Shown: positions 2,594-57,569 of the stretch, in pieces
Position numbering within the stretch: the first letter of the stretch is position 1
How the letters are laid out: each line of letters begins with the position of its first letter
NCBI GenBank assembly: GCA_032718475.1
Contig: JAUCBJ010007214.1
Span: 1-64,000 of the forward strand
DNA: 64,000 nucleotides
Source: Nemertoderma westbladi
Taxonomy: Eukaryota; Animalia; Xenacoelomorpha
Direction of reading: 5' to 3'
Made by a program: the position numbers and the translations under genes
Notes under the pieces: model-generated
What the model was told of the DNA's origin: nothing
Seen by the model: only the letters and a program-made list of their open reading frames with translations
Database searches by the model: none

Positions 2594-5500
2594 CTGCTCC
2601 CAGAAAATGGGATTTAAGTCTATAAAATATAAAAATCACAGTTTCTAAAATACAAAAATACTCTAAACTATTAGTCCTTCTTACGTGAACGGCCTTTACG
2701 AAGTTTTTGAGGCTAGTAAGAGTCCTTTTCTCTTTGGGGCGAGCCACTTTACTAGGAGGGCTATAACTCCTGGGTGAGGGGTGCAATGCAATTGCATCGG
2801 AAGGTTTAGGATTACGGTCGGTGTATCCGCCGGTCGAGGTACCCGGTTGATCGATATCAACCTCAGTGGAACGAGGTCGAACAACCTTTAGAGCGCGTTT
2901 CAGGACAGCAGCTCTTACTGGTCCCTGATGAGTCATTTGCACGAGAGCGGTAGGTGGACCGTGAGTAGTGAGAAATTTCCTCGGTTTGATGGTTCTTTCC
3001 AACTCGAGTTATTGGGCTCTATATTCATAGCGTCGTCTGTGAACTTCCTGTAGCTCTGGATGCGAGTTTATGAATAAGTCACCATATTCCGGATCTTGAC
3101 GGATGAAGTTGATCAAGTTATAGGAATTAATGTCGTTAGGATTAATATTCCTAAGGTACTTGCGAACAAATTTGGTCGAAATGTTCTCGCCAACACGCTT
3201 CATTACCTCGTAGATAGGGGTACGAGATTTTTGCTCAACGGAAGCAAAGAGATATGGGTGAAACGCATAGACTCCTTCATAGGCACGTCCAGGGTAGTAC
3301 CGATGGCGTGATTTGCAATGGAGATCCGCGTTAGCTTCCCAGGCTCGAATATAACGCAGGGCAACCATTTCGTCTATGCTTTCTAGATCTCGGTTGAAAG
3401 GGCAATCGAAACTTGCGTGTCCTTTAAACTGGCAATGATGACATTGAGTCATAAATTGAGGACAGACTGCGAAGATGTGTAGGTTATTGAGTTTACAATA
3501 CGCACAATAGATCTCCATGGAAGATTGATCTTTAAAGTAGGAGCAGGGTACGCTGGAGTCCACCGGGGTGAAGTGATCTCGCGATGCGCATAATCGGCAA
3601 TGTTTTCTAGAAACATAATTGGCATGCCAATAATCGTATGCGGTGAGACATTGTGGACCTTGATACCATTCCAGGACGTAGTCGTTGTCACTGCTCCTGG
3701 GCACTGTGGGTTGAATCTCCTCGGACTCTAAGCAAATTGGTTCGTCTTCCAATTGCATAGCTGAGGTAGGTGTAGCTGTCTCCTCAAGTGAACCCACTGT
3801 CTGAACTTCCACGATAGAATAACCTGTGGGAATTCGGGGTCTTTGTATAACAGAGGAATGTAAGTTCTGTATACAAACAGCCTTGAAAATGGCGAATCCA
3901 GCACTGTCTAACTTCTCAGCAGCTGAGTCTCTTAGGCTGAGCTTGGTCAGAGCGCGGTCCTTGAACTGACTATCAACGTTACGGAATAGAGTCAGAAAGC
4001 ACCCAAAGCATTCGAATCGGATGAATTTATTGTGTTCATCTAACTTGGCGAGTTTGGTTCCAAGTAACAAGGGATGGGCGTGTATAGTGTGACTGCACAC
4101 ATTGGCTAGCCAACCGGCAAGTGCGGCGTTCTCGAAGATAGTGTATATAGATAATGAGGGACGGAGTGGAACACTCATAAAGCTATAAACGACGCCAGGT
4201 GCGGTTAATGGTCCGTCAAAGTATAATCGAGAATAATGATCTCCATATACTTGTTGATAGCTGACAGGGTTTCCAACTTTGAAATTCCATCCATATTCTT
4301 GGAATTCTTGTCCGATAGAGGTTCATTGTACTTTATTGATGCTGCTGGATGTATTGGCATACATAGTTCGGAAGAAACCTTGGCCTTCTGCCCAGGGAGC
4401 AATCAGCTGAGTGTCTACGGAAGGGTATGGGATATTCTCCATGTTTCTGAAGTCATTTTGGAGATCTCCATAAACAGCTGAGCCGATTTTAAGGATTCTC
4501 TCGTTAAACAGCATCTCAAGCACTGGCTGGGGTAACATCGATCCATCTATACCCATGGCCGGTTTGCGCTCGGTATCGGTAACATAACACTGCACGAGTT
4601 CGAATTGTCCATGTCGGAGATTCTTTTGTATCTCGGTGAGAGTCTCAAAAGAATAATCGATCATGTCGGAACACGCACAACACATGGGTAGAACCAGCTA
4701 GTCCACGTAAGTGTATCATTCGCGTAGTTCCCAGCTCTCCAACTGGAATGCTACCTTCGTTATCGTAAGTGACAACTCCATACATTTCGATAACGTTAAG
4801 AGTCTCGTTCCACTCTTTGGTGGTGTTTTCTATAGTCATCTAGCGCGTAGGTTGACCTCGTGTACCATACGACGGACAAGATCCGCTCGATTGTCCGGAG
4901 GCTCAATGATATACCATCGACACGAGCAGCCTCGATTGGCGGACGTTGTAACATATGAGCGTCAGCGATAAAATCTTTAGATCTTAAGTTGATGTCAACC
5001 GGTTGGGGTTGTACCGTGGCGAAGAGTTTGTCTCCGAAATGGGGAACCATTGAAGGATGAATGATGGTTTTGGAATAGAGATCAGTCATAAGGATTTGAG
5101 CTTCTGGTTGGGCTAAAGCTGCTTCTTCTCTATCATCCATTTTGATGTGTTTCTCCTTGAGCTGATTTTCCTCCGCTTGTCGTTGGAAGTGTTCGTCCAA
5201 AAACTCTTGTAGAGAGTAGGTTCGTCCAAGTTCGATATCTTCTTCGAGATTCTGAATTTCCCGATCGAACTGAGGTAAAGCTAATTCTTTTACCGCTTGG
5301 ACTTGCTGTTGCAATTTACGTTTGTCTAAACAATCGTAAGTTCCTTTTCCGATCTTTTGTCGAATAGCATCTAGCTCGTTTCGTACAATGCTCCCCTCCA
5401 CCTCGGTGACAGGTTGTATCGGGGTTAAACCAGGATGATTATACGGGTTGAACGGCGATATTAGGTGTCCGCGTCCCAATCCGGCTAGGTAGGATGGGCG

Positions 5501-6502
5501 AATATCTAGGGAGCCCACAACCGGTGTGTCACCGACTAATTGTTCGGGTAACACTAGATCTTTAAACAATGAGTACAGTTCAGGAGGATCCGTCATACTA
5601 TTAGGATCAAGAGTCTGAGGTCTCACTAGGGAATGAGGAGGTCTGACCGAGTATTCTGGAACTCTGATCATAGGTTTATTTAAGGATCATTTGAGTCGAG
5701 CGAGCGTTGGTGATACATCGAACAAGTTTCGCTCGAAACCCCTGCAAGTATAGCAAGTAAAACCGTGTTTAGCGCAACGTCTCCGCGGATGTTTATGTCT
5801 TTCCGTTTGTTGGTTGGGTCTAGTGCATTCATCACAATAATACCAAAGACGCACGTCTTGTAGGGGAAACGCGGGTGATCTCTCTCCAGTTTTACAATAT
5901 TCCTCCATCTGTTCGAAGCTATCCGGCACAACAGGTAGTGGTTGATCGGCGGTAAGATACATCATAGTGAAATAGAGTCGTTTGAGTTCTATCATAGGGT
6001 TATGATGTGTACCTTGAGGATATCGAGTTTCTAGATTTTGTTGACTGGCTACATTGAGATATGTTTCTCTTAAGAATTCAAATATTTGTTGAAGTCATTG
6101 CGTTTATCCGGCTCTTCAACGTCTTCTCTTTCAAGTCGATTTCGAATAGAATTTTCGTGTTCGATTCTCAGTTTATCATTCCAACTCCGCTGGGTATGAT
6201 ATTTAAATAGAATCATTTCCCTTTTCGGTGTCTACATCGTCCTTATCGTGTAAATCGATAGGATAACCAGTAGTTAAGAAGTCCATATACGTACCATTAC
6301 GATGCGTATAGCGAGCGGTGAATTTTCTATAGTCCAATTCACGCGTGACCTGTTCCTTTGACATTGGCGGTTCGATATAACGGCCATCGTCCTTTGTAGT
6401 AGGTTAACTAGCGTTGCCGCTTATTAAACTATCAACAAACGCTTGCAATGGTAGGGTATATCGCTCCATGATACCAAGGTCTTCTTCTATTAACTCAGTC
6501 AT
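2589..6502 (-). pseudogene. Accessory ORF of element A: Cys/His finger + DEDDy-type 3'-5' exonuclease + three CCHC knuckles (frameshifted)
   Basis: Candidate ATG at 6502. Consecutive fragments: 5687-5995 (CDEC...HPRRRCAKHGFTCYTC), 4796-5671, 4645-4839 (ExoI-like VTYDNEG), 4323-4685 (ExoII-like LPQPVLEMLFNERILKIGSAVYGDL, VDTQLIA), 3009-4178 (CRLC..H..C, CAYC..H..CPQ, CHHCQFKGH..C) and 2589-3002. The stop at 3009 reads GAA in copy C, so the last two fragments were one frame. Confidence 0.8.
2594..2601 (-). promoter_or_regulatory. Short polypurine tract (GGGAGCAG) of element A
   Basis: Abuts the 3' LTR; the equivalent GGGAGTGG lies at 60326-60333 in element C. Confidence 0.6.
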
Positions 6503-22015: not shown

Positions 22016-23214
22016 TGTAAAAGCTTTTGCGGACATAACAAGTCATTTTTCCCAGCAATGCGCAGTGTAGGTGCTTTAGCAGACATAATCAGTCATTTTT
22101 GCCGCAATGCGCATAATACTCTAAAAGATTGGAGCTCAGATGACGAAATCTGTCAGCTGGTTTCCTGTAAACGTGGAACTTTTCTTTGTTCTGCCTAATC
22201 AGCCAATCAGAGCGATTTTCACTTTATTTCTGATAGAGGCCTATGGAAAACCACGCAATGCATTATGGTCTTTGTTTACCTTTCTGAGCCTAAGAACTGG
22301 CTTGGAATTCTTCTGTGCTTCTGTTTTGGAAGTTTCAGACTTTGGCCTAAACATCTGATGGCTTTGATTACAAGAACGTAAATCTATTATCTGCATATAC
22401 TGGAGCACTATTTCCTGAAACTCATGGAACATTACTGAACAACTTGCCTCCTCAACTATTTCCTGGCTGCATTTACCTGACGAACTGATTAAACTCAATG
22501 CATTACGTAACACATACTGACTGTTCATCGCATTATTTTACTTCTGTTATTAATTGTTATTGTATTGATGTATATTGCTGATATATTTGGAGAATACCGA
22601 TGAATAATCATAAAACCCCCAATCTTCTTGATTACTGAAGGTGAGAGGAACAGGTTACCGGTAGCAACTGCGACTTACATTATAGTGGTTTTGTGTGAAT
22701 TAAATGCTATTTCATAATCTCTACAAGTGTCAGTTGCAATCTTCCTTATATATGATCAAATTCAGTGACGGTCGGCAGATCAGTGTGCAGTAGTGTGAAG
22801 TAGTGTGAAGTCGTGTGAAGTAGTGTAACAGATAATAAATCATCTCCTAAAGAATGCGCTATTTACGAAACTCAGTAGCCATCTAGTTGTGATTAGTATA
22901 AGTTATAACTCTATTTTTATACTTAAAGCGCCATGTCCTAAAGGAACTGTTAATATTTCCCCGAAAGTAAATATATTTGTCAGGGATTATATAGTAACGA
23001 TCAATCAAATAATACAGTAGGTCTACACCGCAATAACTTTCAAAGCACCCGAATCCAGTCTCCCTTAACTGTGGGTGAATGATCGCGCACAGACTGGCTT
23101 CGGCGGATGTAACTTCAGTACATTAAATAAACGATATAGGCTAAAGTCGATTTATAAACAAGAGGACAACTAAAATTGGCAGGTTAAACTGCTAAAGGTC
23201 TAAAAGCGCAAACA
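22016..23214 (+). repeat. 5' LTR of element C
   Basis: Reverse-complement homolog of the A LTRs, with a ~50-bp tandem duplication near its start that is shared with the 3' LTR. Confidence 0.93.
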
Positions 23215-23225
23215 ATAATAGATTT
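23215..23225 (+). promoter_or_regulatory. Non-tRNA primer-binding site of C (ATAATAGATTT), complementary to LTR 22380-22390
   Basis: Directly follows the LTR CA; no TGG; perfect 11-nt complement AAATCTATTAT inside the LTR. Function inferred. Confidence 0.65.
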
Positions 23226-23329
23226 TGTTCTTTATTGCACAGTAGGCAATAAATATAGTTGTCTATTGTTCTGGTAAGAACATTAATAGTTTTAAACTCT
23301 TGATTGCACAGTAGGCAATGAATATTTTG

Positions 23330-23890
23330 TGTGACGGGATCTAAGAAGGATCCCGGTTTATCCGCGGTTATTGTATTTACGCGTCCCCACCGTGTGTGTG
23401 TGTGAAAAGAGTCTGGGAATTCTGACGTTATTGATCCTCCGATATGTATAATGCGATAGATAGTATAAAATGGATATAGTATAAAATGGTTGAAACCCAA
23501 ATGATGTAATACAGTAGTGTACAGGTAAATGGTGGTAGGCGAGGACGGTAATAGAAGTCACCGCTCTACCCTAGCTAACCGACTAACATAAATGAGATAA
23601 CTGAACCGAATACTGATACCTAATAATATATATTGCACGGTTTGGCCGTTGTTACAGTACCTAGCCGGTGCCTTCCTCCCATTGGCTAATATCCCTGTTG
23701 GCACCCTTTGGAGTGTTTCCCCTCACTCCTGCTATTCTCTCTCGGTCAGGGGTATGGCCCCTGACCCCTATTGTGTGTTTCTCCTTCCCACTCTGTTGGG
23801 GTGGCACGAGGTTGGGTAATTAAGCTCGTGCTCCCAATATTGCTTAACGGCTTACTTTGTGGGGTGTTAGCGGAATTGAATAAGCTAACA
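23330..23890 (-). repeat. 3' LTR of element B
   Basis: Near-identical to 44701-45259. Confidence 0.96.
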
Positions 23891-23899
23891 CTCCCCCCC
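23891..23899 (-). promoter_or_regulatory. Polypurine tract of B (GGGGGGGAG)
   Basis: Immediately precedes the 3' LTR on the minus strand. Confidence 0.9.
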
Positions 23900-24616: not shown

Positions 24617-25915
24617 TCAGTTTATCCCTCCTGACTTCGGGAACCACCTCAAGTCTTTCCCTCTGCCGTCCTCTTCCCTGGGTCGTTTCCTGGTCACTAC
24701 CGCTCCTCTGGGATCCGCTTTCTGTCCTCGGACCCTCGCCGCCACCTCCTTACTGATCCCGGTTGTCGGCTCCTTGGGCGCTGCTGTTATCAGTGCCCGG
24801 TAACGCTCTGCGGGTGGCCCCTCCGAATGGCCTTGCTGTCTCCCCCTGGTGGCGTCCCATAAGATCATCTTCATCGCCCGCGGCACATGCTCCGCCAAGA
24901 AATCCCTAAACTCCCCTCGGTTCTGTGGCGTCCACCTGTCCAAATACCTTTGCGTATTTATCACCCCGGCATACAACGCCGCCGTTGCTACCTCTTGATA
25001 GGTAAACGGTAACCTCCGCTTTATGATCTCCAAGTGGGCCTCCTGATTGATAAGGAACAAACCCCACTTGAACTCATGGGCCTTCATGCGTTGCCGCGTC
25101 ATGGCCCCAACGTCGGCCCACTCCTCGAAGGTTCTGAACTTCTCTTCATCGTCCATCCAGTCGCACTGGCATCCGTAGTGTCCCCGAAAGTTACACTTCG
25201 AGCATCGGTTATGCAACTGTGGACATGCTCCCATCCTGTGGCTCGTCTCGTGGCAGTAGAGACATCTGGTCCCTCTCTGGAACCAGAACTGGCCTGTGTT
25301 CTCCACTACTCCCAACTCGTCCGGTGCTGTCATAGCCATGAAGACCACCTGCATGTCCAGAAGGTTGGGGGTGTCCGGACCGATGATTCTCTCCGTGTCT
25401 TCGCGAATCGCCGATCCCACCTTCGTCGTCGACTTCTCTCTTACCAGGACTTGCACCGCTTTCGGCAACCGGTTTAATTTCGGCCCGTCCTTGTTCCCAT
25501 ACGTTCCTAGGTCGAATAAGAAAATGTCTCCATTTGGTGCGGCCAAATGTAGGAGTATGGTCCTGGCCGACCCCGCTGATCCTCGTCTCGAACCCTCCTC
25601 ATCTTCCACGGTTCCCTCGTCGTCTAGGATCATATATCCTCCCCTGTTGATGGACTCTATGAACCTCTTCCAATCTTTCTTCGGCGACTCCCTCGCGTAC
25701 TTCGGAATCCCGAACTTCGCCTCGTCCCCTTTCACCACGTAGTGGAAATGTTGGAAGATCGCATTGTCCAGCGACGGCATCCCGTAGGTCCCGACCAGCC
25801 GCTGTTCGTGCATCTCCCTGAAGTGGTCCTGCAGCGCTCGTGCCGCGTGACCCTTTTCCAACCGCTCGTAGTTTCCTCTCATCTTCTCTTCCGGATGCCT
25901 CTTGGTGAAATCCAC
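24617..25915 (-). CDS. Accessory protein of element B: DEDDy/RNase D-WRN-like exonuclease (ExoI, ExoII) + two CCHC knuckles
   Basis: MILDDEG, LLHLAAPNGDIFLFDL, LPKAVQVLVREKSTTKVGSAIRED, LLDMQV; CLYCHETSHRMGACPQ, CSKCNFRGHYGCQC, FEEWAD. In-frame ATG at 25972 lies upstream of a single TAA. Confidence 0.82.
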   Translation of the reverse strand: MDFTKRHPEEKMRGNYERLEKGHAARALQDHFREMHEQRLVGTYGMPSLDNAIFQHFHYVVKGDEAKFGIPKYARESPKKDWKRFIESINRGGYMILDDEGTVEDEEGSRRGSAGSARTILLHLAAPNGDIFLFDLGTYGNKDGPKLNRLPKAVQVLVREKSTTKVGSAIREDTERIIGPDTPNLLDMQVVFMAMTAPDELGVVENTGQFWFQRGTRCLYCHETSHRMGACPQLHNRCSKCNFRGHYGCQCDWMDDEEKFRTFEEWADVGAMTRQRMKAHEFKWGLFLINQEAHLEIIKRRLPFTYQEVATAALYAGVINTQRYLDRWTPQNRGEFRDFLAEHVPRAMKMILWDATRGRQQGHSEGPPAERYRALITAAPKEPTTGISKEVAARVRGQKADPRGAVVTRKRPREEDGRGKDLRWFPKSGGIN

Positions 25916-26377
25916 CAGTATCTCCTTTCCTCCTTATTCCGCCTTTCTCTTTCTGATCAGTTTTCCCGCCATTCTGAACACTCTCACTCGCTCACCTGTA
26001 AGGTGGTGCCTTACCAAGGCGCAATACAGATGAGTGATAAGTTTATGATGGTCTGTACAGTTTGAGAATGGCCCATTTCTACTTAGCTCTGAGTTATAGC
26101 CTAAATTTTCTTACTACTGTTACCATGATTTGTTCTCTTTTAGCCCTATTCTTATTTAATTTTAATTTAATTTTAATTTAATCCTACTGCTTACTGTTTA
26201 TGGATTATTCTATTTCATAATCCACATTCTGACCTACTCTGTGGGCCTGTGCAGTACAGCAGTATATGTCGTGTGGCCTACACGATTTATCCAACTGTAC
26301 TCATATGCCCCCCTCTCGCTACTAACTGCTAACTAATATCCATATTATACATATCCCTTCTACCCCTATTACTAATC

Positions 26378-27054
26378 GGTACTACGTACCCTCCTACTAA
26401 CCTCTAACTAACTAGCGGTACTACGTACCCTCTAACTCTTACTCTCTCTAACTAACTAACTAGCGGTACTACGTACCCTCTAACTCTTACTCTCTCTCTC
26501 TCTAACTAGCGGTACTACGTACCCTCTAACTACTCTAACTCTACTAACTAATGGTACTACGTACCCTCTAACTCTTACTCTCTCTCTCTCTAACTAGCGG
26601 TACTATGTACCCTCTAACTACTCTAACTCCACTAACTAGCGGTACTACGTACCCTCTAACTCTTACTCTCTCTCTCTCTAACTAGCGGTACTACGTACCC
26701 TCTAACTACTCTAACTCCACTAATGGTACTACGTACCCTCTTACTACTCTCTAACTAACGGTACTACGTACCCTCTAACTACTCCACTAACTAACGGTAC
26801 TACGTACCCTCTTACCACTCTTACTCCACTAACTAACGGTACTACGTACCCTCTTACTACTCTGACTCTACTAACCACCGGTACTACGTACCCTCTTACT
26901 ACTTCTCTAACACCTCTAACTAACTAACTCCTATCTCTCGGTACTACGTACCTCCTAACTAACTAACTGACTAACTAACTCTCACTCTCGGTACTACGTA
27001 CCTCCTAACTAACTAACTAGCTAACTAACTCTCACTCTCGGTACTACGTACCTC
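26378..27054. repeat. Minisatellite: 16 copies of the hairpin motif GGTACTACGTACC with variable CTAA/CTCT-rich spacers
   Basis: Counted by eye; one copy reads GGTACTATGTACC. Confidence 0.92.
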
Positions 27055-36022
<8,968 letters not shown>

Positions 36023-36123: not shown

Positions 36124-39100
36124 CTAAGGTGCCCCTTCTAATAGACAGCATTTCCCTACAGCTCTCCTGTAGGTTTTTCTGTCCTTCGCACCTATCCTGC
36201 CACCTATCCGCACTTCTACCGATCGGACTCTTCCGTCCTCATCGGAGTAAGTGCCTACAACTCTCACCAACCGCCACTGGTTGTTGATGATAGTATCATC
36301 CGTAACGATTACGAGATCTCCTTCTCTTAACTCCCTATTCGACTTCCTCCACTTGCTTCTTTTGTGAAGCGTGGGTAGGTATTCCTCAACCCACCTCCTC
36401 CAATACTCTGCGCTTATTGCTTTAGCGACTTTCCAACTCTGGCGGGAGTGTATGTCATCTGGGTCTACACCCCGCATATCGATGGTCGCTGGCCTTTCCA
36501 TTAGAAAATGGCTGGGTGTCAGCACATCTAATGACTCAGGGTCATCATTCTCCGGATATAGCAGTCTGCTATTAATGCACTTCGCAAGTACTGTTCTCAA
36601 GACGTCCTCCGTGACCATGTGGGTGTTCATTAACTTCGTCATGAGACGCTTCGAACTGCCCACCAGTCTCTCGACGCATCCTAGTGTATGTGGTGCATAC
36701 GGCGTCCTTCTCTCCCACTTTACCTGTCGTCGTCTCATGGCTGCCCTGACTTCCTCCCCTTCCAAGATGTCCAAGGCCTCTGCCATCTCGTTCTCTGCTC
36801 CCACAAAGTTGGTTCCGCTGTCGGAGTACATTACTGCGATCGTCCCACCTTTGTGGTCTCTGAGCCCTTCTAATGCATTAATGAATGCTGATGCGGTTGC
36901 ATCTTGGGCGAGTTCTATCCCTACCGCCCGCGTGTTGTTGCATACGAAGATAATACCGTAGCGTTTCTCCGTGTGCCGCATCACCTTGATCTTTATCGGC
37001 CCGAACATGTCCACACCACAATGCGTAAATGGCGGGTCGTGCTGTCTTACCCTACTCGCTGGTAGTGGTGCCATCTCCTGTATGGTTCGCTCCTTCTTCG
37101 CTCGTCGGCAGGTCTGGCACTGCCCCACTACCGCTTTTACCTTCTTCCTCAACTGCTTGACCCAAAAGGTCCTCCGTATCTCCGTAAGGGTTCGGTTGGT
37201 GCCCCCGTGCAATATCGACTTGTGGGAGTCCCAGATAATCTGGTGGATTATTGGCGATCCTGTGGGAATGATGATGGGTTTCGGTGGTATGACTATGCTG
37301 TTGTTGTATCCCACCCTGGAGTTCATTACTAGAATCCCGTCGTCATTAAGTTGTGGTGACAGCGTGATCAGCTCGCTGTCCCGTCGGATATGCTGTTGTT
37401 TACCGACGCATTCCACCTCGTCGCCATAGCTCTTCCGTTGTTCATAGCGGATTACTGCTTTGGCCGCTCCTTCCAGATCTGTTGTTGTCCTGATCTTCTT
37501 GCATTTGCCAACTCCCGCGAGGAAATTCCCGAAGGCTCTCCAGTACGCCACTAATTTCTTGGTATTATACCAACTAGAGCTGTAGCTGAGGAGTTTATCC
37601 GTCGGGTTATCGCACAGTTCTACTGGTTTAGGTTGCACGTCCCTTATCTCCCTCACCATCTGGGAGTATATCTCTTCTCCCTTTGAATCTCCCTCTTCTC
37701 CCTCTGATACTGCTTCTCCCGAGCCCGGGTCCACCTTTCTCATCGGCGGCCAGGCCTCCTTGTCGCTCAGAAACTGTGGCCCATGTTGCCACAATTCTTC
37801 CTTTTTTAAGAAAGAGTGACGTGCCACGCCCCTCGATAACAAGTCCGCTGGATTCTCGTCCGTAGGGCAGTAGTGCCACCTTCCTAACTCTGTGGTCGCC
37901 CTTATTTCGTCCACTCTATTTGCGACGAATATAGGGTATCTCATCCTCTCATTGTGTAACCAGCCAAGCACTACCATGGAATCCGTCCAGTAGTGTGTCT
38001 CCACTATGTTGGGAATAGCGTCCATTATGTAGGCTGTGGCCCTAACTCCTAGGCTCGCTGCTGTTAACTCTAGTTTGGGAACCGATGCCGAATCTGGTGG
38101 CGTTGACTTCGCCTTGCTGAAGGCAAGTCTGGGCTTATGAGGCCCCTCTTGTTGTACTAAATAGAGTGCCGCTCCGTATGCCTCTAGTGACGCATCGGAG
38201 AACATGTGCAGATCCAGGTTCGTCATGTCCCCATCCGGGAAATACACTCGCGGCATGCTGTATGTTCCCATCTTCTCCAAGCCTTCTGTCCACTTACAGC
38301 ACTGTTTCTTGATCTCTTCTGGTACCTCTATGTCCCACTCATCCTTCAGTTTGTATACTCTCTTGAGTATCTGTTTCCCCGTGACTAATAGTGGGGATGC
38401 TAGGCCTAGGGGATCGTATATTCTCGCTATGTATGATACATAGCCTCTCTTTGTGTGGATGTCTGCGCCCTCCTGGCTCAGCTGGTACTTCAGTTCATCT
38501 GTCTCTCTGTTCCGCACGATTCACAGTGCCTTCTGTTGAGACTCTGTCCTCTTATTCGCCATGTCCTGCCCTTTTGCTGTTGTGGGATTATCCATGGTCG
38601 ATTCTGGTCTCTCATCCTCCATCGCCTTGATAAATTCCTCCGAATTGGATTGGAATTTGGTCAGGTTAAAGCCGGATCCTTTTAGGATGTCACGAACCTC
38701 GCGCCCTGTGTCCAGTATCTCCTTAACCGTGTTCCCAGAATCCATTCCGTCGTCTACGTAGAAGCCGCGTCAAATCATATCGACGGCCCTAGTGCTGTAT
38801 TTATCCTCCTTTCCCTTCACTGTATCTCTTACTGCCATAGTCGTCGTAAATGAAGACGACTTGGCTCCCATGTTCTGTACTATCATCTTGTACGTCGGTA
38901 CAATCGACGGTTCTTCATCGCCGTTGTACCATAAGAAGCGTTGGCTATCGCTATCTTCTTCCGTTATACGGACTTGGTTGAACATGCCCTCTATATCACA
39001 GGTGAAGGCGTGTTTCCCATTCCTGAATCTAAGTAGGACCTCGATCCCCGAGTTGTAGATATTGGGACCCTCCCGCAGATAGTCGTTTAGGCATTTTCCG

Positions 39101-40272
39101 TTAGTCTTGGCCGATGCGTCAACTACCATCCGCAGTTTACCTTTCTTCGGATCTAAAGCCACGTGGAGTGGCAGGTAATATGTCCTGTCCGTATTTGGTT
39201 CGTCGACCGGCAACTCCACGGCCCATCCTTTCTCGACGTACTTCTTAATCGTTCTGTGGATGTACTCATTCTTCTTGGGGCTCCGTTTTAGTGTCTGCTT
39301 CAGCTTGCGGAGCCTCGTGAGTACCATCCCTCTATTATCGGGCAGTGGTAGCTTCGGTAGCTTCCATACCATTCCTATGGTGTACCGCCCCTCGTCGCAT
39401 TTCATAGACTCCTCTACGCTCTGTTGAGCCTGTTTGTCTTCCACCGAGGTCCCGACCCCGGTCTCCTTTAATCCTTCAAAATCCTGTCTGAGCAGTCTTT
39501 TAAGCTGCTCCTCTGCTCTCTCATCACTCATTTCCTGCATAGTTCCCGCGAACATGCATCCTGATGTCTCCGACATCCTAAATGGTATCTTGCTCTTGAT
39601 TGGGCCGCTCAGCGTCCACCCGAATGGTGTTAGTATTGCCACCTGGTCACACTGTCTGTCTTCGCCGAAGACCGTTTGCATTCTTTCGTGGGCTGTCGGG
39701 CAGTCCATTCCTACTATGATGGATACCTTCCTAACGTCCACCTCTGGGATTGAGAAGTCGATATCATCCAGAAATTTGTATTGTTCGACCTCGATGTTGG
39801 TTGGCCGTCTGGCATTGATGTTTATTGATTCTATCACTTGGATGTGGTCGATGGTCGCCCCGTAGTCACATCCTGGTGCCACCGCTGCAATTGCGCACCG
39901 TCCGGTTCTCATCTCCAGGATCTCATCTTTGCTAGAGATGGTTGTTACCGCCATTCTACTCGGCCTCGTTCTCAATCCTATCTCTTCGGCCACCCAATCC
40001 TCGATTAATGTGAAGGCAGCTCCACTATCAACCAGCATCAGTGTGGTTACTGATCGATTGCCTTCTCCAATCACTCGCACCGGTAGTACCCCAAGTAGCA
40101 CTGTTCCTCTCTTCTTCGCCCCTACTGTGCTCATTGCCATTGTTTGGCCTTTCCTTTGACCGAACTTGACTGGCGTCTCCTTGCATTGCCTAGCTCTATG
40201 TCCACTCATCACACATCGCGAGCAGATCTCATTTCTCGCCGCATATTCTACCTGATCTTCTCTGGGTAGCAC
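36124..40272 (-). pseudogene. pol: pol of element B (protease, RT, RNase H, integrase), with in-frame stops
   Basis: LVDSGA; YYLPLH, RMVVDAS, DIEGMFNQV; YVDD at ~38749-38760 just past a stop; HMFSDAS, PKLELTAA, WTDS, NPADLLSRG; H..LHGG..CQTC, GVDMFGP, SDSGTNF, VERLV. Confidence 0.95.
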
Positions 40273-40355
40273 TTGCTATCCTATAGTTTGGCATTAACCG
40301 TTCTAGCAGTTGTTCCTACTATTGTTATTTTAGACAAGGCGTGCTTCGAGGGACA

Positions 40356-43300
40356 CTATCCTCTTTTCTTTGCCCCTACGGTGCTCGTTGCCATCGTCTG
40401 CCCTTTGCCCTGACCGAACTTAATTGGCGTTTCTTCGCATTGGTCGGCTCTGTGTCCACCCATCACACATCGAGAACAAATTTCATATCTCCTCGCGTAT
40501 TCTACCTGATCTTCCCTGGGTAGCGCTCGCCAGTACCTGCAGTTCATGGTTTGATGAAGCGCATTTGTATGTAGCTGGCATTTGCTCTTTGGGTTGTAGC
40601 CGTCCTTATACAGTGCATTGCGTATCGCAGCTGCGTTTGTACCAAAGTCCCTACTATTCTTATTGTTTGGGTTCGGCCTACTGGACGTACTGGGGTTATA
40701 TTTATTTGTGTTGTTATTGTTCCCCTGTCCGTTCCATGGTGTGGTCTTACCTTCGGCTACCTGTGGACTTGCAGTCCCCTGCGTCGCTGCGTATGGCAAT
40801 GAGTGCCTGAGCTTTGGTAATGCGTTTGACGTGTTGTGCTCTGGCCTCGGTCTATGGTAATCCGTCTTCGGTCCCTTTCCCAGGCTATCTTCGCTATAGA
40901 CTGGGTCGGTTATTAGTTCAGCTTCGTAGTTTAAGAAACTTGACATTTCCTCCAGACCCGGTTCCGCACCCTTCCTATCTCGAGTGGAGAAAGCGATTTT
41001 CCTCCACTTGTTGCGCAGCCAGATCGGTAGTGCCTGCGCTATCGTGGTGATGTTGTTGGACGCGTTGAGCTCGTATGGCGCGTCTAGCGTCTTTAGTACG
41101 ATTAGCGCCTTTTCGACTTTGTTAGCGAACGTCTTAATGCTAACGGGGTTATCCTGCAGGCCACCCGAAGTTATGCCTCTCAGGGTTTGCCTGATGATCT
41201 TGGCCGGGTGCCCGTATTCCCTGTCCAGTGCCCGCCATGCCGTCGTGAAGCCGCCCTCTATGCCCTGGTATTGCCTCACGATGTCGTATGCTGGGCCTCC
41301 TGTGTATACTTGCAGATATTTTAGGCACTCCGCCTGCGTCAAGTTCTTTGTTAGTATTTCGTTACTATACATACGCCGAAACTGGAGATACTCCTCCGGC
41401 CTACTCCCATCGAATTTGAATGGTTCCATGGGTGGTAACTCGATCCTCGTTTTTAACGCATCGATCAACGTGGCCATCCCCATCGCCTGCGCTTCCAATG
41501 GGTTCGATGGATGTTGTATAGTTTCTCCCGCTGGGTGTGTTCCGTCCGTCCTGCTTTCTGCCTTCCTTTGGCTTGGGTATATCATTGGGGGTAGCGGCCC
41601 CCTCCATATTTCTGTGTCGCATGATCTATTTTCATCCAACGGTCTCGTTGATCTTGCTCCTATCGGGGTATATTGTTGATATTGTGATGGGGGAATGTCA
41701 CCCTGCCCCCCCCCCCACCGGTATGTTTGGTACTGGGGTTGATGTTAATATATTGGGGCCCATCCACCTATCCGCAATAAATCCCCCCTCCCCTGGGTAT
41801 ATGTTATGTCCTTGCATGCTGTAGTCATACTGCTGTACTGGTACCGGTATAGGCCTATCATCTTCTGGCCTACCTGCCGGTATGTACTCTGTGACTTCCG
41901 GGTTTAATCCCGTCGACCGCGCTATCCTATCGCCTACACGATTCCTGTCAGCATGGCCTATGGTATGTGCAGTAAGGCCTACAGTATGTCCTACAGTCTG
42001 TATGTGTCGCTCGGGATCGAAGTTTATTCTTCTCGAATAATCCTCCCCGCGGCTACCGTATTCTCGATCGGTAGGTATATCCCGTCGGAAAGTTTCTCTT
42101 CGACCCCCTCTACTGCTCTCGTCTTCGTACCGGTACATCGTGTACCCCTCTCTCGACGCGTGATGCGCCTCGTCAGGTCGCGTCTCTCCAGGACGACGGC
42201 AATCTCCCGAAGTTCGACCCCACCAACACTCTCTTTCCATCTCGACTACCAACGGCTCGCTATCCGTCCTCGCTCTCCTGTCGTTCGCGGCGATACTTCT
42301 CCTGCTGTCTTCTCTTCTTCTCCTTTCAGTGCAGTATTCCGGCTCGTGAGATCTCTCGTCGACCTCCCGGTTAAACCCCACTGTTCTTCTTCCCTCTTCT
42401 GATCGGGCTCGACGCTTCGTCCGCCCTCTCGTGACGTCAATCTGCCTCTCTCTGCTCGATCGCACGCTGCTGGGGATACTCGCAATCCCCCTATCACTCT
42501 CCGTCGCCGGGAGTTGCGGTTTACCTATTTCGGCCCGCGCATTATCCACCGACGCCTGTGGGACACTCTCTGCCCCCCCCTCTCGCCACTAACTTCTCGC
42601 TGTGGGGCTCTTGTAGCCCCCCCCCCCCCCCCCCCCGCTCGCCACATATCACACCACTACCTCTTACTTCTCTTCTACACCCCTCTCCAGTCAACACAAT
42701 GTTTCTACTGCGGCTGGGTTCGCTTACCCCTGCCTCTCTCCCCACTACTACTTGGCCTATCGGGCCTACTCCGGGTTGGCTCAACCCCGCCACCCCCTGC
42801 CTACTAACTACGTGGCCTACCAGGCCGCCGTTGGCTCGACTCAACCCCGCCACCTCCTGCCTACTAACTACATGGCCTACCAGGCCGCTGTCGGGTCGAC
42901 TCAGCCCCGCCACTTCCTGCCTACTAACTACATGGCCTACCTGGCCGCCACCTGTCGGGTTATACACTTCCGACGCGTTCACGTTAATAGCACCTATATT
43001 AGAAACGGAATTATTTTGTTCGTTTGAAATAAAATCATTTGAATTATTTTGCGCGACTACACTATTTGAATTATTTTGTAAATTCGGGTTTGGATCATTA
43101 TTTAAATTATTTGAGTTATTATTATTTTCTAAATTTAAATTACTATTCGGGTTATTTTGCACGTTTAAATTGAAATTATTATTTAGGTTATTTGTATTTA
43201 AATTTAAATTACTACTACTAGGTAAAGTATTTCCTGCAATAAAAGCTTGGTTAGGATCATCCAATACGGTACTATTAATATTAACGTCGTCTGCTGTAGT

Positions 43301-44399
43301 ATTATTATTACCCCCCCCCCCCCCCACCCGTACGGTCACACCAGTTACGGGTCTGTCGTGCGGTCCCTGTAAGTGGGGTATTAATAAATGTATCCACGGC
43401 CCTTGGCTCCTCGAAAATCTTCGAGTCAGCCTCGCCCTCTGACACCCCCACCCGCGCCAGTTCCAGTTCGCGCGTGCGCCTAATTTTGCACTATACAAGC
43501 TCGCTTAGGTGTTTTTCCAACTCTTTTCGCTCACGCTCGTCTCTTGCCATTCTCTCCCGACCCTCCCGTGCGTTCTGGTCGGCCAATTCCGCCTCTCTCC
43601 TAGCTCCCTCCCTTCGTCTCGCCTCACGCTCTTTGCGTTTACTTTCCTCCCTCGCCTCACGCTCCCTACGTTCACTCTGCTCTCTCGCCTCATACTCTTC
43701 TTGTTCCTTCCTCCCTATTTCCTCACACTCCCTAAGGCTTTTCGCGGCCCTTTCGGCCCTCTCTCCGGTTTCTCTAATCAGTTCCATTTCCCTCTCTAGT
43801 AGCATTCTCCTCTCCTCTAACCGTCTCTCTACTTCTCTCTGACTTTGCGCTATCAGATCGAGATGGTACGTCGCATTTATCTCTCTCACCCGTCTTTCTT
43901 TTACGGAGGATGTAGCAGACTTATCGGTTGCGACAGATTCCTTCCGCCTTCCTGACCTACTAACTTTCCCCCTCCTCCCAGAACTTCCTCCGACCAACGA
44001 GACCGAATCCTCGGGGTTAACCTCGGATTCGCCCTCGTCAGGTCTCCTCCAACCCACTAATTGTATAACCTGGGCATCGACTAAGTATGGCCCTATGTAC
44101 ACTGCACTAGGTTGCATACCCCCACACCGCCATAAATCACACAGTTCCTCGGCAACCCCTCTCGCTCTCTCTTTGGCCAGTTCTCTCTGCCCGAAGCGCA
44201 TTAGATAACTAAAATGTCTATCCGACTCACCTAGTCCTGTTGTCAACTTTACCTCATCTATCTTCGCCCCCTCCTTGGCCTCCTTAAGTAGCTTCCGGGT
44301 CGCGTTGTAGGCCCGTCGAAGTCGATCAGAAACCCCGACGTCCTCGTCGCCGACCTCTCCTCCGTCTCTCCGGGTCCGACGTCGTACCGGCGGCCCCAC
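40356..44399 (-). pseudogene. gag: gag of element B, frameshifted (coiled coil, Asn-rich region, capsid region, knuckles)
   Basis: ORFs 43491-44399, 42542-43498, 41698-42549 and 40356-41639 (ELPPMEPFKFDGS...YLQVYTGGPA; CQLH..H..C; CSRCVMGGH..C). Confidence 0.88.
42725..42960 (-). repeat. 60-bp tandem repeat (~4 units) encoding GHVVSRQEVAGLSRP-like 20-mers
   Basis: TCAACCCCGCCAC.CCTGCCTACTAACTAC.TGGCCTACC repeats at 60-bp period. Confidence 0.9.
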
Positions 44400-44689
44400 C
44401 GTCGCCGTTCCGGTGGGCTGTCGGCCTGTGGCTGGCCGGCGACATTGGTACGTCGACCAATGTGTGTCGACTCGTCTCTTTCTCCTTCCATCTCGCTCTC
44501 TCCTTCTCTCAACTCGACTTCCGGCTCCAGACGGCCCCCCTCATCTTGAACTGCCGGATGACCCGTTACTGATGGGTCCGGCGTCGTAGGCCTATACCGT
44601 CTGGGCACGAATCGTTAGTTCTTCGTCCGGGGTCCGCGTTGGCGTAGCGTCACTCATCTCTCGCTTTAGGTCGGTTGCTGACAGAGTCT

Positions 44690-44700
44690 ACTTCTATTAC
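44690..44700 (-). promoter_or_regulatory. Non-tRNA primer-binding site of B (GTAATAGAAGT), complementary to LTR 44917-44927
   Basis: Directly follows the LTR CA on the minus strand; no TGG; perfect 11-nt complement inside the LTR. Function inferred. Confidence 0.68.
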
Positions 44701-45259
44701 TGTGACGGGATCTAAGAAGGATCCCGGTTTATCCGCGGTTATTGTATTTACGCGTCCCCGCCATGTGTGTGTGAAAAGAGTCTGGGAATTCTGACGTTAT
44801 TGATCCTCCGATATGTATAATGCGATAGATAGTATAAAATGGATATAGTATAAAATGGTTGAAACCCAAATGATGTAATACAGTAGTGTACAGGTAAATG
44901 GTGGTAGGCGAGGATGGTAATAGAAGTCTCCGCTCTACCCTAGCTAACCGACTAACATAAATGAGATAACTGAACTGAATACTGATACCTAATAATATAT
45001 ATTGCACGGTTTGGCCATTGTTACAGTACCTAGCCGGTGCCTTCCTCCCATTGGCTAATATCCCTGTTGGCGCCCTTTGGAGTGTTTCCCCTCACTCCTG
45101 CTATTTTCTCTCGGTCAGGGGTATGGCCCCTGACCCCTATAATGTGTTTCTCCTTCCCACTCTGTTGGGGTGGCACGAGGTTGGGTAATTAACCTCGTGC
45201 TCCCAATATTGCTTAACGGATTACTTTGTGGGGTGTTAGCGGAATTGAATAAGCTAACA
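44701..45259 (-). repeat. 5' LTR of element B
   Basis: TATA-like ATATATATTA (~44993-45002) with a TCAGTT initiator-like motif ~25 nt downstream (44973-44978) on the minus strand. Confidence 0.96.
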
Positions 45260-47427
45260 TTTTGTCTATTGTTCTGGTAAGAACAATAATAGATTTTAGT
45301 TTCTTTATTGCACCGTAGGCAATAAAATCGAATGTACCGGTCGGACGGTGAACTGTAGGCCTAACTACCCGAACCGGTACTTACAGGTATCAGTATTATT
45401 TCGATTGTGAAATATTGTATATTGTAGGCTGTTAGGGGATAAGGGATTGATCACCCCTTATTCCTTTGTATGGTTTACTTATTTCTGTCAGTTTTATTTA
45501 TCTGTAAGTGTAATATTGAGCAGAAGGCGTGTAAGCCTGCTCAGATTGTACAAATAATTTGTAGGCCGGATTGTTGTCTAGCTGTTGTTAGGTCTGAAGC
45601 GATTGCAGTATGTGTGGAGTGTCTGTCCGATAAAGTACTAGTTAGGAAGGTGGGGGCATCCAGTGTTGTAAGGTAAATCCCCCCCGAAAGAATAAGTCGT
45701 ACTACTCGGTTAGAACGCCTACTAACTAACCATTTCGGAGTCTGCATATACTGTAGTTTATTTAGGCTTGACAGTAGTCTGCCAGCATTTGGTCTGTGTT
45801 TTGTTTGTATAGTCTGCACGGGTAGTGCAATATTTATTAGTCAGAGTCTATGCGAGTATTCGCAACCACCAACTCCCCAAGTTTATTCCTACAGTAATTG
45901 TGCTTGTTATACATACCGTTATAGTTGAATTAACCCCGGTACTACATCAGGGCTGCTTAGCATAGGTAAAGACTGGTGATTTTGTGCTCCGGTCACTCCA
46001 GCAGATACCGTAGTTCTTTTGACTGTTCAAGTATATTTAACTGCTGGTTATTTGTTGTATAAGTACTTGTACCTAATTTAGGGTTTAGTGTACAGTGCTT
46101 TCCGAAAGTAATTTGGTGTGTAGGCAGTATATTTGTGTTGTAAAGTGGTTAATAGGCACGTTAGCTCTGGTTGGCTGCGGTAATTAACTTCTAGGTAAGG
46201 ACACTCCGGGTACATAACGTAGTACTTATAGAGCTAAGACTATAAGTCGTCAGACGGTGGTATTTCCTTATCTGGACAACGCAATTTACTTACTACTGCT
46301 TTATTGTTTTCAAATACCGTAGATTCCTGTCAGTTTGTAAGAACCAGAAATTCTAACTCCTTGTTAGGCTGGTTTGTAGATTTCTTGTAAAATTACCCTA
46401 AAAAATTGTATGTGTAACTTTTTAGTGTTTATTTAGAGATTGTAATCTCAAACTGTAATTGTAAGTAATTTGTAGTGATAAGTAACTTAGTAAAGTAGAA
46501 TTATTCGTTTTAGTATCCAACAAGTAGCACTCCACTGAGAGCGTTCAGCTTCTGTGTAGTGACTCCTTACCCAGAAATAATAACATTTATTTCAAATATT
46601 GTCAAAAACCCATTGTACGGGTATATATATATATTATAAATCAACTCAACCGATTTATAAAATAGTAGGCCTGTTATACATCAATTAGGTCTTAATATCA
46701 GTTGGACTACTGCTTAATAACAGTAACAAGTAAAAGGGAAATAACCCTTAAAATTCAGAAATTCAGTTATTATAAAATAATTTACATTACCGGTATTTAC
46801 GGTAGGCTTATTATATATATTTATATGAATTTAGGCTGAAATTATATACCAGTATTCTGTGACTAAACCTAGTCTGTAATAATACTTATATATATACTAT
46901 AAGTGTATACCGGTATTTTAATATATTATATATATATCACATTACACTGAGTAACGGTATCGGTAATTAATCACTAGGCTTACAGTTGATACTGAATTAC
47001 TAGACTTACTTTAACTGTCGTTATAGTAGTAGGCATTCAACTGTAATATAAATCATGGCTGACACAAAACAAACACTGTCAGATAGTCTCCTAGGAAGAA
47101 CAGTCTGTGACTCAGATAGGAGTATAGAAAATCTGAGTCCAAGTCCCCTCCTACTGTAAGAAAGGTCATCCCTACAGTAGTAGTATCAGACCCTAGGCTA
47201 GTAAAGCACCATAGGTCTATCATAGGCACTAGGGCTCAAGTCAAGCGGGACCAAGAGGCAGCTGTTAAACAGCAGCAGCACCCTAACCGGGAACTTATTT
47301 CTCAGCGGCCCGATAACTCCAGTAGTTCAGACACTGTAGAGTTGACACCCGAAATCGGAGCAAGGATGGCAGAAGCAGTTTATCCGGATCCACTTCTAAT
47401 TCTTCTGGGGCCGTACTCACTAGAGTA

Positions 47428-54369: not shown

Positions 54370-54765
54370 TTAGGTGGACCCGACTTCCTAAGTAAAGAAG
54401 AGGATGAATGGCCTCCTCATCTCACCACAGCTGAGATTAGACAAGCCAAGGGAGTGGAGAAAGTCAAACCTAAAACCCGGACGAGTAAATCAAAGTTATT
54501 TAAACCCGTGATAGATCTGTCTGTACTACACATTTCCAGGGACAATGCTGTGGATCTAAACCCCCCCCCCCCCCCACAACGAACAAATCTGTTATAGACA
54601 TCAGAGAAAGAGACTGGAAATCTGGAACACCAGACATCTCGCAGGGACTCTCACCTCTCCTGCAGAGAGCGATAAATCATTATAGCTCCTGGAATCGGCT
54701 TTGTAAGGCTGTCGTGTATCTGAAAAGATGCTTCCACCATCACTATTCCAGGACAAAGATTGCTA

Positions 54766-57569
54766 CACTGAAAAAATTGTTCGGCGGTTCTTTTTTTAAC
54801 CTCTGGTATAAAATTTTCAACCGATGGTTGCTCTTTTAAAACCGCTGGTTACAAATTGGCATATGCTAAAACGGTGGTTTAAATTTTCCCAAAGTGCAGT
54901 GTTACATTGAAACGGTGGTTTAAATTTTCCCAAACTGCAGTGTTACATTGAAACGGTGGTTTAAATTTTCCCAAACTGCAGTGTTACATTGAAACGGTGG
55001 TTTTCTGGATTGTAGTTGCTATCATAAAACAGAAACAGTGTTTGACTTAGGAATAAACGGCGGTTCATATTATTTGATACAAAGTAACCGGTGGTTTAAA
55101 ACTTACATTAATCGATTGGTTGAAAAATACATATAACCGTTGATTTAAAACACAGTAAACGGTGGTTGAAAACTTAGAATAACCGGTGGTTTACAAAAAT
55201 TCAAATCACAGTTTGTTTACAACACAGTAAACGGTAGTGATCAATAACATAATATCCAATCATGTAAACAATCTTAATACGTTTGTTAAGTACGTTTTTA
55301 TGTAACATTTATCAGGTAAATATTTAACAATTGTTTAACATGATTTACATGTTTTACATTATTTATAACATAAATCAAGCATTCCCTTATATTTGTTGAA
55401 TGCTACTATATCATGTTGAACAAAAATGTGTTATAAATTACAATGTATGTCTTAGGGATGTTTGAATAAACCGCCATAAGTTGACCGCTAATTCTGCAAT
55501 TTGTTCATACTGTCATAGGCCTATCATAATTCAGTCATTTTTTGTGAAAGTGCCATTGCCATCCTGCGCTGTCCTGCAATCGCAGAATCGGTACCGGTAC
55601 AATCCTGAAATTTGATTATAGTGATGCAGTGTATCACTGGCACTGGTACAGTAGTGGTACCGGTTGCCGGTAGTACAGAACAGTACAGCAGTAGTACAGT
55701 ACTGCTGTAGTAGGGCTGTGTAGGGTAGTGTACTCTTTTTGTTTTGTAGTTGTACCGGTACTATTTCTGTATTTCTTGGATTGTAGCTATATCTGTGTGT
55801 ATATTACTGTATTATGAGTACGGTACCTGAGTACGGTATATTATATTTCTGTATTTGGTTTATTATTTTGGTTTGGTTAGGCCTATGCAGGAATGCAGCT
55901 ATGCGGTTGGTTAGTTCTGTAGTTCAGTAGTTGGCCAGGCCTTAACCCTAATTAAAACTGTCACATAGGCCAGTAGGCGTAACCGGGTGGTGAATTTTTA
56001 GGGGGGTCAGGGGTGGAAATTCTCTGCTACACCAGTACCTACCGGTGTACCTACCAGTATGCCGAGACCCGACACAACTTTAGGAGTAGGAAGGCCAATA
56101 AACGAAAGTTGTCCTCAACCACCTGTCAACACCATCAACAGCTGCTAACGATAAAGCCGGTACTGAGGTACAGTCTGACAGTTGCCTAGTAAAAGTTTAG
56201 ATCAGGTTTCAGACATATCGCCATTGGATATAGCTAAAGTTAATCTCAAGGAGCCAGATGCAAAAGTGACCAAACGGAAAGTAATAAATCGTCCCCCTTT
56301 GCTCTGCTTATCGGATGATGATAATATAGCTGAGGGATTGGAGATAGTCCCACATCCACGAGGTGCAAAGAGGAAAGTAAGCATTTTTGATTCTTCTTCT
56401 GATGATGAATCCTCGGAATTATCTTATGGATCTAAATCGTCTAGTACCTGCAGTGGTCCATCTGATAGTCGAGATGAGGGTGACTATGTTGGTGAGTTGG
56501 TTTGGGCGCGGCAACGTATAACAAAACCATTCTGGCCTGCCCGAACTGAAAGAGCTCCAGAGGGTTCCGCAATGCCCAAGCCAAAGCATCCAGGGGACAA
56601 CTTCAAGTGGATTTACTTCTTTGGTTCTAACAATTTCTCATGGATTAAAGACACTGCGGAATACATTGTTCCATATTTTGAAAATCGCGAGCAGCATGGG
56701 AAAAGGAAGGCTTCGTCTACAGTCAAATTTCTAAAGGGAATTGATGACATTGATGAAGAATATACCGCAATGTCTGTTAGGAAAAATGATTGTCCATATC
56801 AGGAAGAGTGAATGGTTCAATACATTATCATTTAAGATTTAGGAAACTGTAAATTCATTTATTCAATAATTTGATTATCATTTATATTTGATAAACATAT
56901 TTGATATTTGATATTATATTTGATATTCAATAAACCATTTATTTGAAATCTAAAACACCGACTTGATCCTCATTTGAAACCTGAAACACCGGTTGATCTT
57001 AAATTAACCACAGGTTAAACCATGTATTTGAAACCCGAAACACCGGTTGATCTTAAATTAACCACAGGTTAAACCATATATTTGAAACCTGAAACAACGG
57101 TTGATCCACATTAAACGCAGGTTTAATCATTTATTTTGAAAAAAACACCGGTTGATCTTAAATTAACCACAGGTTAAACCATATATTTGAAACCCGAAAC
57201 ACCGGTTGATCTTAAATTAACCACAGGTTAAACCATATATTTGAAACCTGAAACAACGGTTGATCCACATTAAACGCAGGTTTATCCATTTATTTTGAAA
57301 CCTAAACACCTGTTTACCTTAAATTAACCACAGGTTAAATCATTTATTTGAAACCTGAAACACCATTGAACTTAAGCACAACCACTGGTTGTTATACGAA
57401 AAACAACCTGAGGTTTAATTTATAAAATTTAACCACAGGTTATCTTTGAATCGATAAACCTCTGGTTCCTCGAATTAACCGCAGGTCAAAAATTCACCAA
57501 ATTAACCTGGGGTTATTTTCGAAAACCAGAGGTTTTTTAAAAAAGAACCACTGGTACGATTTTTCAGTG
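54766..57569. mobile_element. Non-autonomous CMC/EnSpm-like DNA transposon (CACTG...CAGTG, TA TSD) inserted in pol of C
   Basis: Imperfect TIRs CACTGAAAAA..GGTTCTTTTTT..AACCTCTGGT; TA duplicated at 54764-65 and 57570-71 (single TA in A at ~9642); dense subterminal repeats at 54800-55240 and 56940-57540; no transposase seen. Confidence 0.85.
56182..56811 (+). CDS. PWWP-domain protein (HDGF/LEDGF-type fold) carried by the DNA transposon
   Basis: GELVWARQRITKPFWPAR...WIYFFGSNNFSWI...IVPYFENREQHGK...KFLKGIDDI follows the PWWP pattern; Ser/Asp-rich N-terminal part; AATAAA at 56929. Start probably frameshifted. Confidence 0.85.
   Translation: MPSKSLDQVSDISPLDIAKVNLKEPDAKVTKRKVINRPPLLCLSDDDNIAEGLEIVPHPRGAKRKVSIFDSSSDDESSELSYGSKSSSTCSGPSDSRDEGDYVGELVWARQRITKPFWPARTERAPEGSAMPKPKHPGDNFKWIYFFGSNNFSWIKDTAEYIVPYFENREQHGKRKASSTVKFLKGIDDIDEEYTAMSVRKNDCPYQEE

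Follow-up and report, generated by a model that had tools for sequence, protein, structure and literature searches.

The stretch of DNA analysed here (the window; 64 kb) contains element B, which is inserted in the leader of another element, C, as well as element A, which belongs to the same family as C (Table 1). Element B is a BEL/Pao (Belpaoviridae) retrotransposon, an assignment that rests on its proteins. Its Pol has the order PR-RT-RH-INT with a Pao-type RNase H and its Gag contains DUF1759, as in other BEL/Pao elements. The Pfam matches are PF03564, PF13650, PF05380 (E 2e-39), PF17921 and PF18701, and the homologues listed contain the same families. These are BEL/Pao families rather than those of a Ty3/gypsy chromovirus Pol, and no chromodomain was found in the Pfam search of B. 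The gag-pol frames are broken by stops and frame changes. As the LTR pair is 97.5% identical and is flanked by a 5-bp target duplication (CAAAA), the LTR ends of B are fixed independently. The LTR length falls within the 0.2–1.2 kb of BEL/Pao elements, and the target duplication and the polypurine tract are likewise those of this group. The best protein matches listed are 32–38% identical, and B and C form long branches in a tree without named references; the named BEL/Pao clades that we considered were Sinbad, Suzu, Dan, Flow, Sparrow, Surcouf, Tas, BEL and Pao. No tRNA gene was found in the window, and a search of Rfam gave no meaningful match.

Table 1. Positions of the features discussed in the text, numbered along the window.
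Feature	Position	Strand	Remarks
Element B	23330-45259	-	21.9 kb in all
5' LTR of B	44701..45259	-	559 nt, TG...CA; CAAAA duplication at 45260-45264
3' LTR of B	23330..23890	-	561 nt; CAAAA duplication at 23325-23329
Polypurine tract of B	23891..23899	-	just before 3' LTR
gag-pol of B	36124..44657	-	DUF1759, aspartic protease, RT, Pao RNase H, integrase, DUF5641
Extra ORF of B	24617..25933	-	437 aa, after integrase; two CCHC knuckles
(CTAA)n array within B	27055..36021		perfect; ~9 kb, 2,242 copies
Hairpin closing U5 of B	44706..44726	-	7 bp; 5 nt ahead of PBS
PBS position of B	44690..44700	-	11-mer GTAATAGAAGT straight after LTR CA; start not TGG
LTR 11-mer of B	44917..44927	-	exactly complementary to PBS; LTR position 333-343
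Predicted primer 3' end of B	44917	-	AC/C context
Leader arm of extended helix in B	44650..44689	-	includes first ATG 44657-44655; varies among other copies
LTR arm of imperfect leader pairing in B	44928..44977	-	ends at predicted initiator
Predicted core promoter of B	44968..45001	-	TATATA 45001-44996; initiator-like A 44976, 44971; motif scan
CCAAT upstream of predicted promoter in B	45054-45050	-	motif scan
5' LTR of C	22016..23214	+	1,199 nt; second BEL/Pao family
PBS position of C	23215..23225	+	ATAATAGATTT straight after CA
LTR 11-mer of C	22380..22390	+	exact complement of PBS
Extra 3' ORFs of A	3009-4322, 4796-5686	-	

Two further parts of B lie downstream of its gag-pol. The (CTAA)n array, which is preceded by a satellite of 42–50 nt (26371–27084), may be a genuine expansion or an assembly artefact. 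Searches with the extra ORF matched no family in Pfam or NCBIfam, nothing in the PDB and no homologue of comparable length, and a single-sequence model (pLDDT 32) was unusable. It contains motifs that we take to resemble ExoI and ExoII of a DEDDy 3'-5' exonuclease, and the nearest atlas cluster, which we treat as a lead only, combines PF01612 with zf-CCHC (score 0.82). A 3'-5' exonuclease-like domain in this ORF is thus possible. One of the extra ORFs of element A shares a zinc-knuckle block with that of B (30% over 69 aa, E 3e-7), and the two elements have this block in common although their Pol proteins are only 31–36% identical.

An earlier note on this DNA had claimed that B lacks a tRNA-type PBS, that the sequence at the PBS position has an exact complement in the LTR of B itself, and that this pairing primes reverse transcription. 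The first two claims were borne out. The CA at the end of the LTR adjoins GTAATAGAAGT and not TGG, and its exact complement lies at 44927–44917 and again in the 3' LTR at 23558–23548, with no further complement found elsewhere in the window. When the LTR was shuffled 20,000 times with dinucleotides preserved, an 11-nt match that begins at the first base after CA arose 3 times, and of 8,531 interior 11-mers, 1 has a complement in the LTR. Folding of the LTR and leader RNA, which the note had proposed as a check, agrees with this: under five assumed transcription starts, the 11-nt duplex formed with pair probabilities of 0.87–1.0.

Element C, of the second BEL/Pao family in the window, shows the same arrangement. 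Its LTR end was fixed by means of element A, which has the target duplication ATAGG. Directly after CA, C contains ATAATAGATTT, the complement of an 11-mer within its LTR; a match of this length was found in 22/10,000 shuffles. Between B and C, three of the 11 base pairs are changed, each of them on both sides. The LTRs of the two elements are unalignable (score 21; 136/200 shuffles as good), and their Pol proteins share 31–36% identity. Counting against self-priming, the duplex of C is improbable in folds of 946–1,046 nt (0–0.23). In element A, the 11-mer occurs in both LTRs (2242–2232 and 21283–21273, minus strand) and its last base is unlike that of C. The LTRs of A and C diverge directly after the 11-mer, and the LTR end and PBS of A itself are deleted. 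Within the leader of C (23215–23329 and 45260–45330), the LTR-end/PBS region is repeated in tandem as two to three degenerate copies, and it is into this leader that B inserted. The pol region of C carries a 3-kb insertion with a PWWP-domain ORF (56179–56811, plus strand, E 4e-10) and tandem arrays of 41, 24 and 54 nt (54869–57375); this insertion may represent a further element or part of a captured gene.

Other copies of B in the host were surveyed via Logan contigs, selected for similarity, that came from four runs of DNA sequencing representing at most two samples. The joints where these copies depart from the leader of B lie at or near the edge of the PBS, at 44690 (3/4 runs), 44692 and 44697, and the deletions at the U5 hairpin lie in its loop (44715–44717). 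Among the variants listed, none falls within the LTR 11-mer, while 44929, 44933 and 44958 do vary. Breaks in contigs at 44925–44928 might be read as a variant in the 11-mer; this reading was rejected, as a divergence at 44897 together with the word length of 31 letters explains them. PBS position 10 (44691) varies in some host contigs, with 55 of 191 depth units in X1, and no partner change at 44926 is listed, in contigs that are too short to link both sites. This variant counts against strict pairing unless the copies are dead or have other LTRs.

We fetched 100 relative loci, with an alignment of 20 Pol proteins; the metagenome scan retained the best 80 of 572, and viral contigs yielded nothing useful. 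Nineteen of the BEL/Pao loci (L082–L100) come from genome bins of bacteria and archaea, where they most likely reflect host contamination. Both LTR copies, diverging at their ends, are visible in 10 of the 100 loci. Four of these relatives have a tRNA-type PBS, with TGG 2–5 nt after CA and a self-complement of at most 5 nt. TGG is missing from the remaining six, each of which has a self-complement of 10–14 nt (0/300 leader shuffles in every case) that begins 1–9 nt beyond the LTR end. The tRNA-type and the self-complementary PBS are mutually exclusive in all 10 relatives (Fisher p 0.005).

The self-complement is contiguous in L041 (10 nt) and L007 (12 nt), and in four relatives it is found only if a GT-AG intron within the LTR is bridged: L082 and L091 (both 8+3), L089 (7+7) and L098 (6+6). 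The rules for splice donors and acceptors were set after viewing L082, L091 and L098, the last of which has an uncertain LTR end; L089 is a blind match. These LTR introns measure 77–451 nt, and exon 1 contributes only 3–9 paired letters. The letters before the donor differ between L082 (CAC) and L091 (TAA), and their PBSs match accordingly (GTG and TTA). TATA and initiator motifs, spaced 29–32 nt apart, occur 65–92 nt upstream in L082, L091 and L094. For B and C, a splice-made primer was considered and rejected: it is not needed, as the match is contiguous, and no spliced alternative gave a score.

A first blind scan for CA followed by a complement of at least 11 nt found 13 cases at 3,739 positions, which is no better than the 118 found at 54,650 positions with other dinucleotides. 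We therefore counted only loci with known LTR ends or with matches above those of shuffles. The blind scan of 47 further loci gave 11 matches above all 12 shuffles, eight at plausible PBS positions (L001, L012, L015, L025, L045, L077, L090 and L094; 11–16 nt) and three not; a further five or six loci have tRNA-type PBSs and about 30 were unclassifiable. L009, L081, L087 and L100 were excluded from the scans. In the LTR, the paired segment ends in AC in 9/13 robust cases and is followed by C in 9/13, a motif (AC/C) that was spotted after the fact and in relatives that are not independent. At ~333–341, locus L043 contains a tRNA-type PBS that also finds a 9-nt complement in its LTR, which lies within the range of shuffles but has the form expected of an intermediate.

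In a tree of RNase H and integrase sequences (70 rows, after a coverage filter had removed L045, L079, L091, L098 and L099), 13 self-type and 8 tRNA-type labels need a single change, against a mean of 6.6 changes when labels were shuffled (0/500 as good). Weak candidates that did not rise above the shuffles (L014, L020, L036, L085, L086 and L095) were labelled at first and dropped from the second count. The split between the two types has a support of 27, while B sits on a long branch and has tRNA-type elements among its nearest rows. The tree allows a single origin of the self-type PBS.

Beyond the 11-nt duplex, the earlier note described an imperfect pairing of about 40 nt that continues almost to a predicted start at ~44976. 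For B itself this stood up: the leader/LTR duplex has −41.5 kcal/mol compared with a shuffle mean of −26.2 (0/300 as good), the extension alone has −32.7 kcal/mol (0/300 leader shuffles as good), and the energy gain ceases at 44977. The result for the duplex is tempered by 3/172 GC-rich interior 50-mers that pair equally well with the LTR, and the entire 361-nt fold has a z of only −1.96. As a general feature, the pairing did not hold, as the extension is significant in 3/21 elements, and C (62/300 shuffles) is not among them. The leader differences in the other copies of B give a mixed picture, with 8/14 neutral or stabilising for the helix compared with 38% of all single changes. The 50-nt extension, which we do not consider a core feature, might act as a helper helix or have been left behind by read-through into the primer. 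At the predicted promoter, the A residues of the initiator-like TCAGTT motifs sit 25 and 30 nt past the start of TATATA; the A at 44976 in the 5' LTR is a G in the 3' LTR.

We take the pairing to mark the primer, as it occupies the place of the tRNA PBS and excludes it, as its letters vary freely between families yet stay matched, and as it is exact over a short stretch beyond which it decays. The paired end probably lies inside the RNA, in B 55–60 nt after the predicted start, since exon 1 of the intron-type relatives gives only 3–9 letters and TATA and initiator motifs lie 65–121 nt upstream in three intron-type elements. An internal paired end would need a cut 3' of the duplex. Our preferred reading, to which we give moderate confidence, is that B primes with its own RNA, cut just 3' of the internal 11-mer, and not from the 5' end; that its primer is self-derived in one form or another appears highly likely. 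The claim of self-priming gains support from the matched changes in C and the exclusive PBS classes of the 10 relatives. The longer-than-Tf1 primer that the earlier note proposed fits the short first exons and the extension that ends at the predicted initiator, with the length of ~60 nt itself being a prediction.

If B primes in this way, transcription would begin at ~44976–44971, the predicted start. The 11-mer would then pair with the PBS, assisted in B by the 50-nt imperfect extension, and a nuclease would cut between 44917 and 44916 (AC/C). This nuclease might be the RT/RNase H of the element, which is suggested solely by analogy with Tf1. The product would be a capped primer of 55–60 nt with its 3'-OH abutting the CA of the LTR. 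From this primer, RT would copy ~216 nt (44701–44916) and then jump to the 3' R, so that for the LTR sequence upstream of the cut, the 3' LTR copy would serve as template. As strong-stop DNA would span only the sequence downstream of the cut, an LTR intron could survive via the 3' copy. Plus-strand synthesis would copy the last 10–16 nt of the primer into the PBS and thereby keep both sites matched, which would account for a pairing that is exact over 10–16 nt and then decays. We give an even chance to a wider proposal: that a wide branch of animal BEL/Pao elements, so far undescribed, has abandoned tRNA priming and uses an internal position of its own RNA, with a cut at a preferred AC/C sequence, and that in many members host splicing joins two LTR exons into the primer. 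Only the spliced 5' copy would then prime, the unspliced 3' copy would transmit the intron, and B and C would be intron-less members.

The primer could also derive from the element by another route: a 3' R copy or a second RNA might be shortened as far as the duplex, a task that a 3'-5' exonuclease could perform, or host nucleases might cut a small RNA from transcripts of the element. The 11-mer is indeed present in both LTRs of B, a polyadenylation hexamer lies 0–1 nt past the paired segment in L082, L091 and L014, and the extra ORF of B resembles the exonuclease and zinc-knuckle cluster mentioned above. However, neither AATAAA nor ATTAAA was found in the LTR of B, and the relatives of the extra ORF in the 100 loci amount to one knuckle-sized match (E 0.048). 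Moreover, LTR introns that last would require an unspliced 3' template copy. We regard such a route as unlikely.

As the extension in B spans the first ATG (44657) and many of the self-type PBSs begin with GTAA, which is splice-donor-like, the pairing might instead be a regulatory RNA structure that masks the gag AUG or a splice-donor-like GTAA, or that acts as a packaging switch. The primer would then be an RNA of the host, for instance an internal piece of a tRNA, and half-tRNA primers are known in Ty1/copia elements (PMC6317226, excerpt). This is difficult to reconcile with a perfect pairing that starts at the PBS position, supplants the tRNA PBS in 6/6 relatives and is missing in 4/4 tRNA-type relatives, or with PBS letters that vary freely between families, which a fixed RNA would be unable to follow. 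We consider a regulatory structure with such a primer quite unlikely, and a host-RNA primer for B is on the whole improbable.

A strict Tf1 mechanism would place the start at 44927 with the first 11 nt as primer, the upstream pairing in B being a relic or a coincidence at the DNA level. In B and C alike, the match measures exactly 11 nt, like that of Tf1 (PMC7175516, excerpt), the duplex of B also forms when the start is set at the 11-mer (probability 0.87–0.99), and the extension is missing in most relatives. Yet TATA precedes the 11-mer by 74 nt and the initiators precede it by 44–49 nt, the extension stops at the initiator, and the intron-type relatives would require a first exon of 3–9 nt. 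The side duplexes of the pretzel, the three-duplex structure within which Tf1 priming is set (PMC10085805, excerpt), are not predicted either: in folds of B, the 3' flank of the PBS pairs upstream of the primer or with itself, and one predicted downstream helix pairs ~60 nt from the PBS. A strict Tf1 mechanism therefore seems rather improbable for B. Retron RT begins synthesis at the 2'-OH of a nucleotide within the RNA, and such priming at the duplex end would need no cut and would fit an internal primer end with a preferred sequence context, but we know of no LTR-element RT that primes from an internal 2'-OH, and as the precedent of Tf1 is RNase H cleavage, we regard this as highly improbable.

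Self-priming has so far been demonstrated in Tf1; for its Ty3/gypsy relatives and a single plant copia lineage it is a prediction. In Tf1 the primer is the RNA's first 11 bases, with RNase H cutting between bases 11 and 12 (PMC7175516, excerpt). Tj1 has been proposed to self-prime like Tf1 (PMC4600332, excerpt), and self-priming has been predicted for the plant Tcn1 and TAR lineages (PMC6317226, excerpt). For Belpaoviridae, the ICTV describes an 18-nt PBS complementary to the 3' end of a host tRNA and priming by this tRNA, while calling their replication 'poorly understood' (PMC8742986). In the main texts of four papers on BEL/Pao clades (PMC554778, PMC3118150, PMC6238403 and PMC8556966) the terms 'PBS' and 'tRNA' are absent, and a link between BEL/Pao and self-priming was not found in excerpts of PMC3601003, PMC13524379, PMC8220671, PMC3286476 and PMC6934838. 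Full-text searches of the literature did not turn up BEL/Pao self-priming, with supplements, Repbase, GyDB and subscription journals outside their scope. If our reading is correct, each of the three LTR superfamilies includes self-priming elements, a point of relevance to the proposal that self-priming preceded tRNA priming (PMC3601003, excerpt). It would also account for the many BEL/Pao elements of aquatic animals that receive no PBS call. Such priming requires that the RNA be cut internally and, for relatives, that splicing be a step of replication. The model yields exact coordinates for the start, the cut and the length of strong-stop DNA.

Compared with known systems, B agrees with the Belpaoviridae of the ICTV in its LTRs, gag-pol domain order, polypurine tract and metazoan-type relatives. 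It differs in the extra 3' ORF and the 9-kb microsatellite, and the tRNA PBS described for the family is present in neither B nor C, as TGG is absent from the first bases after CA in both. The TAR lineage (Houba and Osr-1; plant Ty1/copia) is similar in that self-priming outside Tf1/sushi was predicted from sequence (PMC6317226, excerpt), but it belongs to another superfamily and kingdom, and neither an internal nor a splice-made primer was found in that excerpt. With Tf1, Tf2 and Tj1 of the Tf1/sushi group, as described in these excerpts, B shares the lack of a tRNA PBS and an 11-nt PBS after the CA of the LTR that is complementary to ~11 nt of its own LTR. However, Tf1/sushi elements are Ty3/gypsy chromoviruses, whereas the Pao RNase H, DUF1759 and DUF5641 of B place it in another superfamily. 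The primer of Tf1 is the first 11 nt, whereas the primer end of B is probably internal. In the Tf1 pretzel, as excerpted, both PBS flanks pair downstream of the primer, whereas the leader of B pairs upstream of it. Unlike Tf1/sushi elements, relatives of B can match across a splice junction. What would be new relative to known self-priming is thus its likely occurrence in another superfamily, a probable internal primer end and, in relatives, a putative splice-made primer. B resembles Tf1 in its self-complementary PBS without being a member of Tf1/sushi, and it departs from the priming described for BEL/Pao elements.
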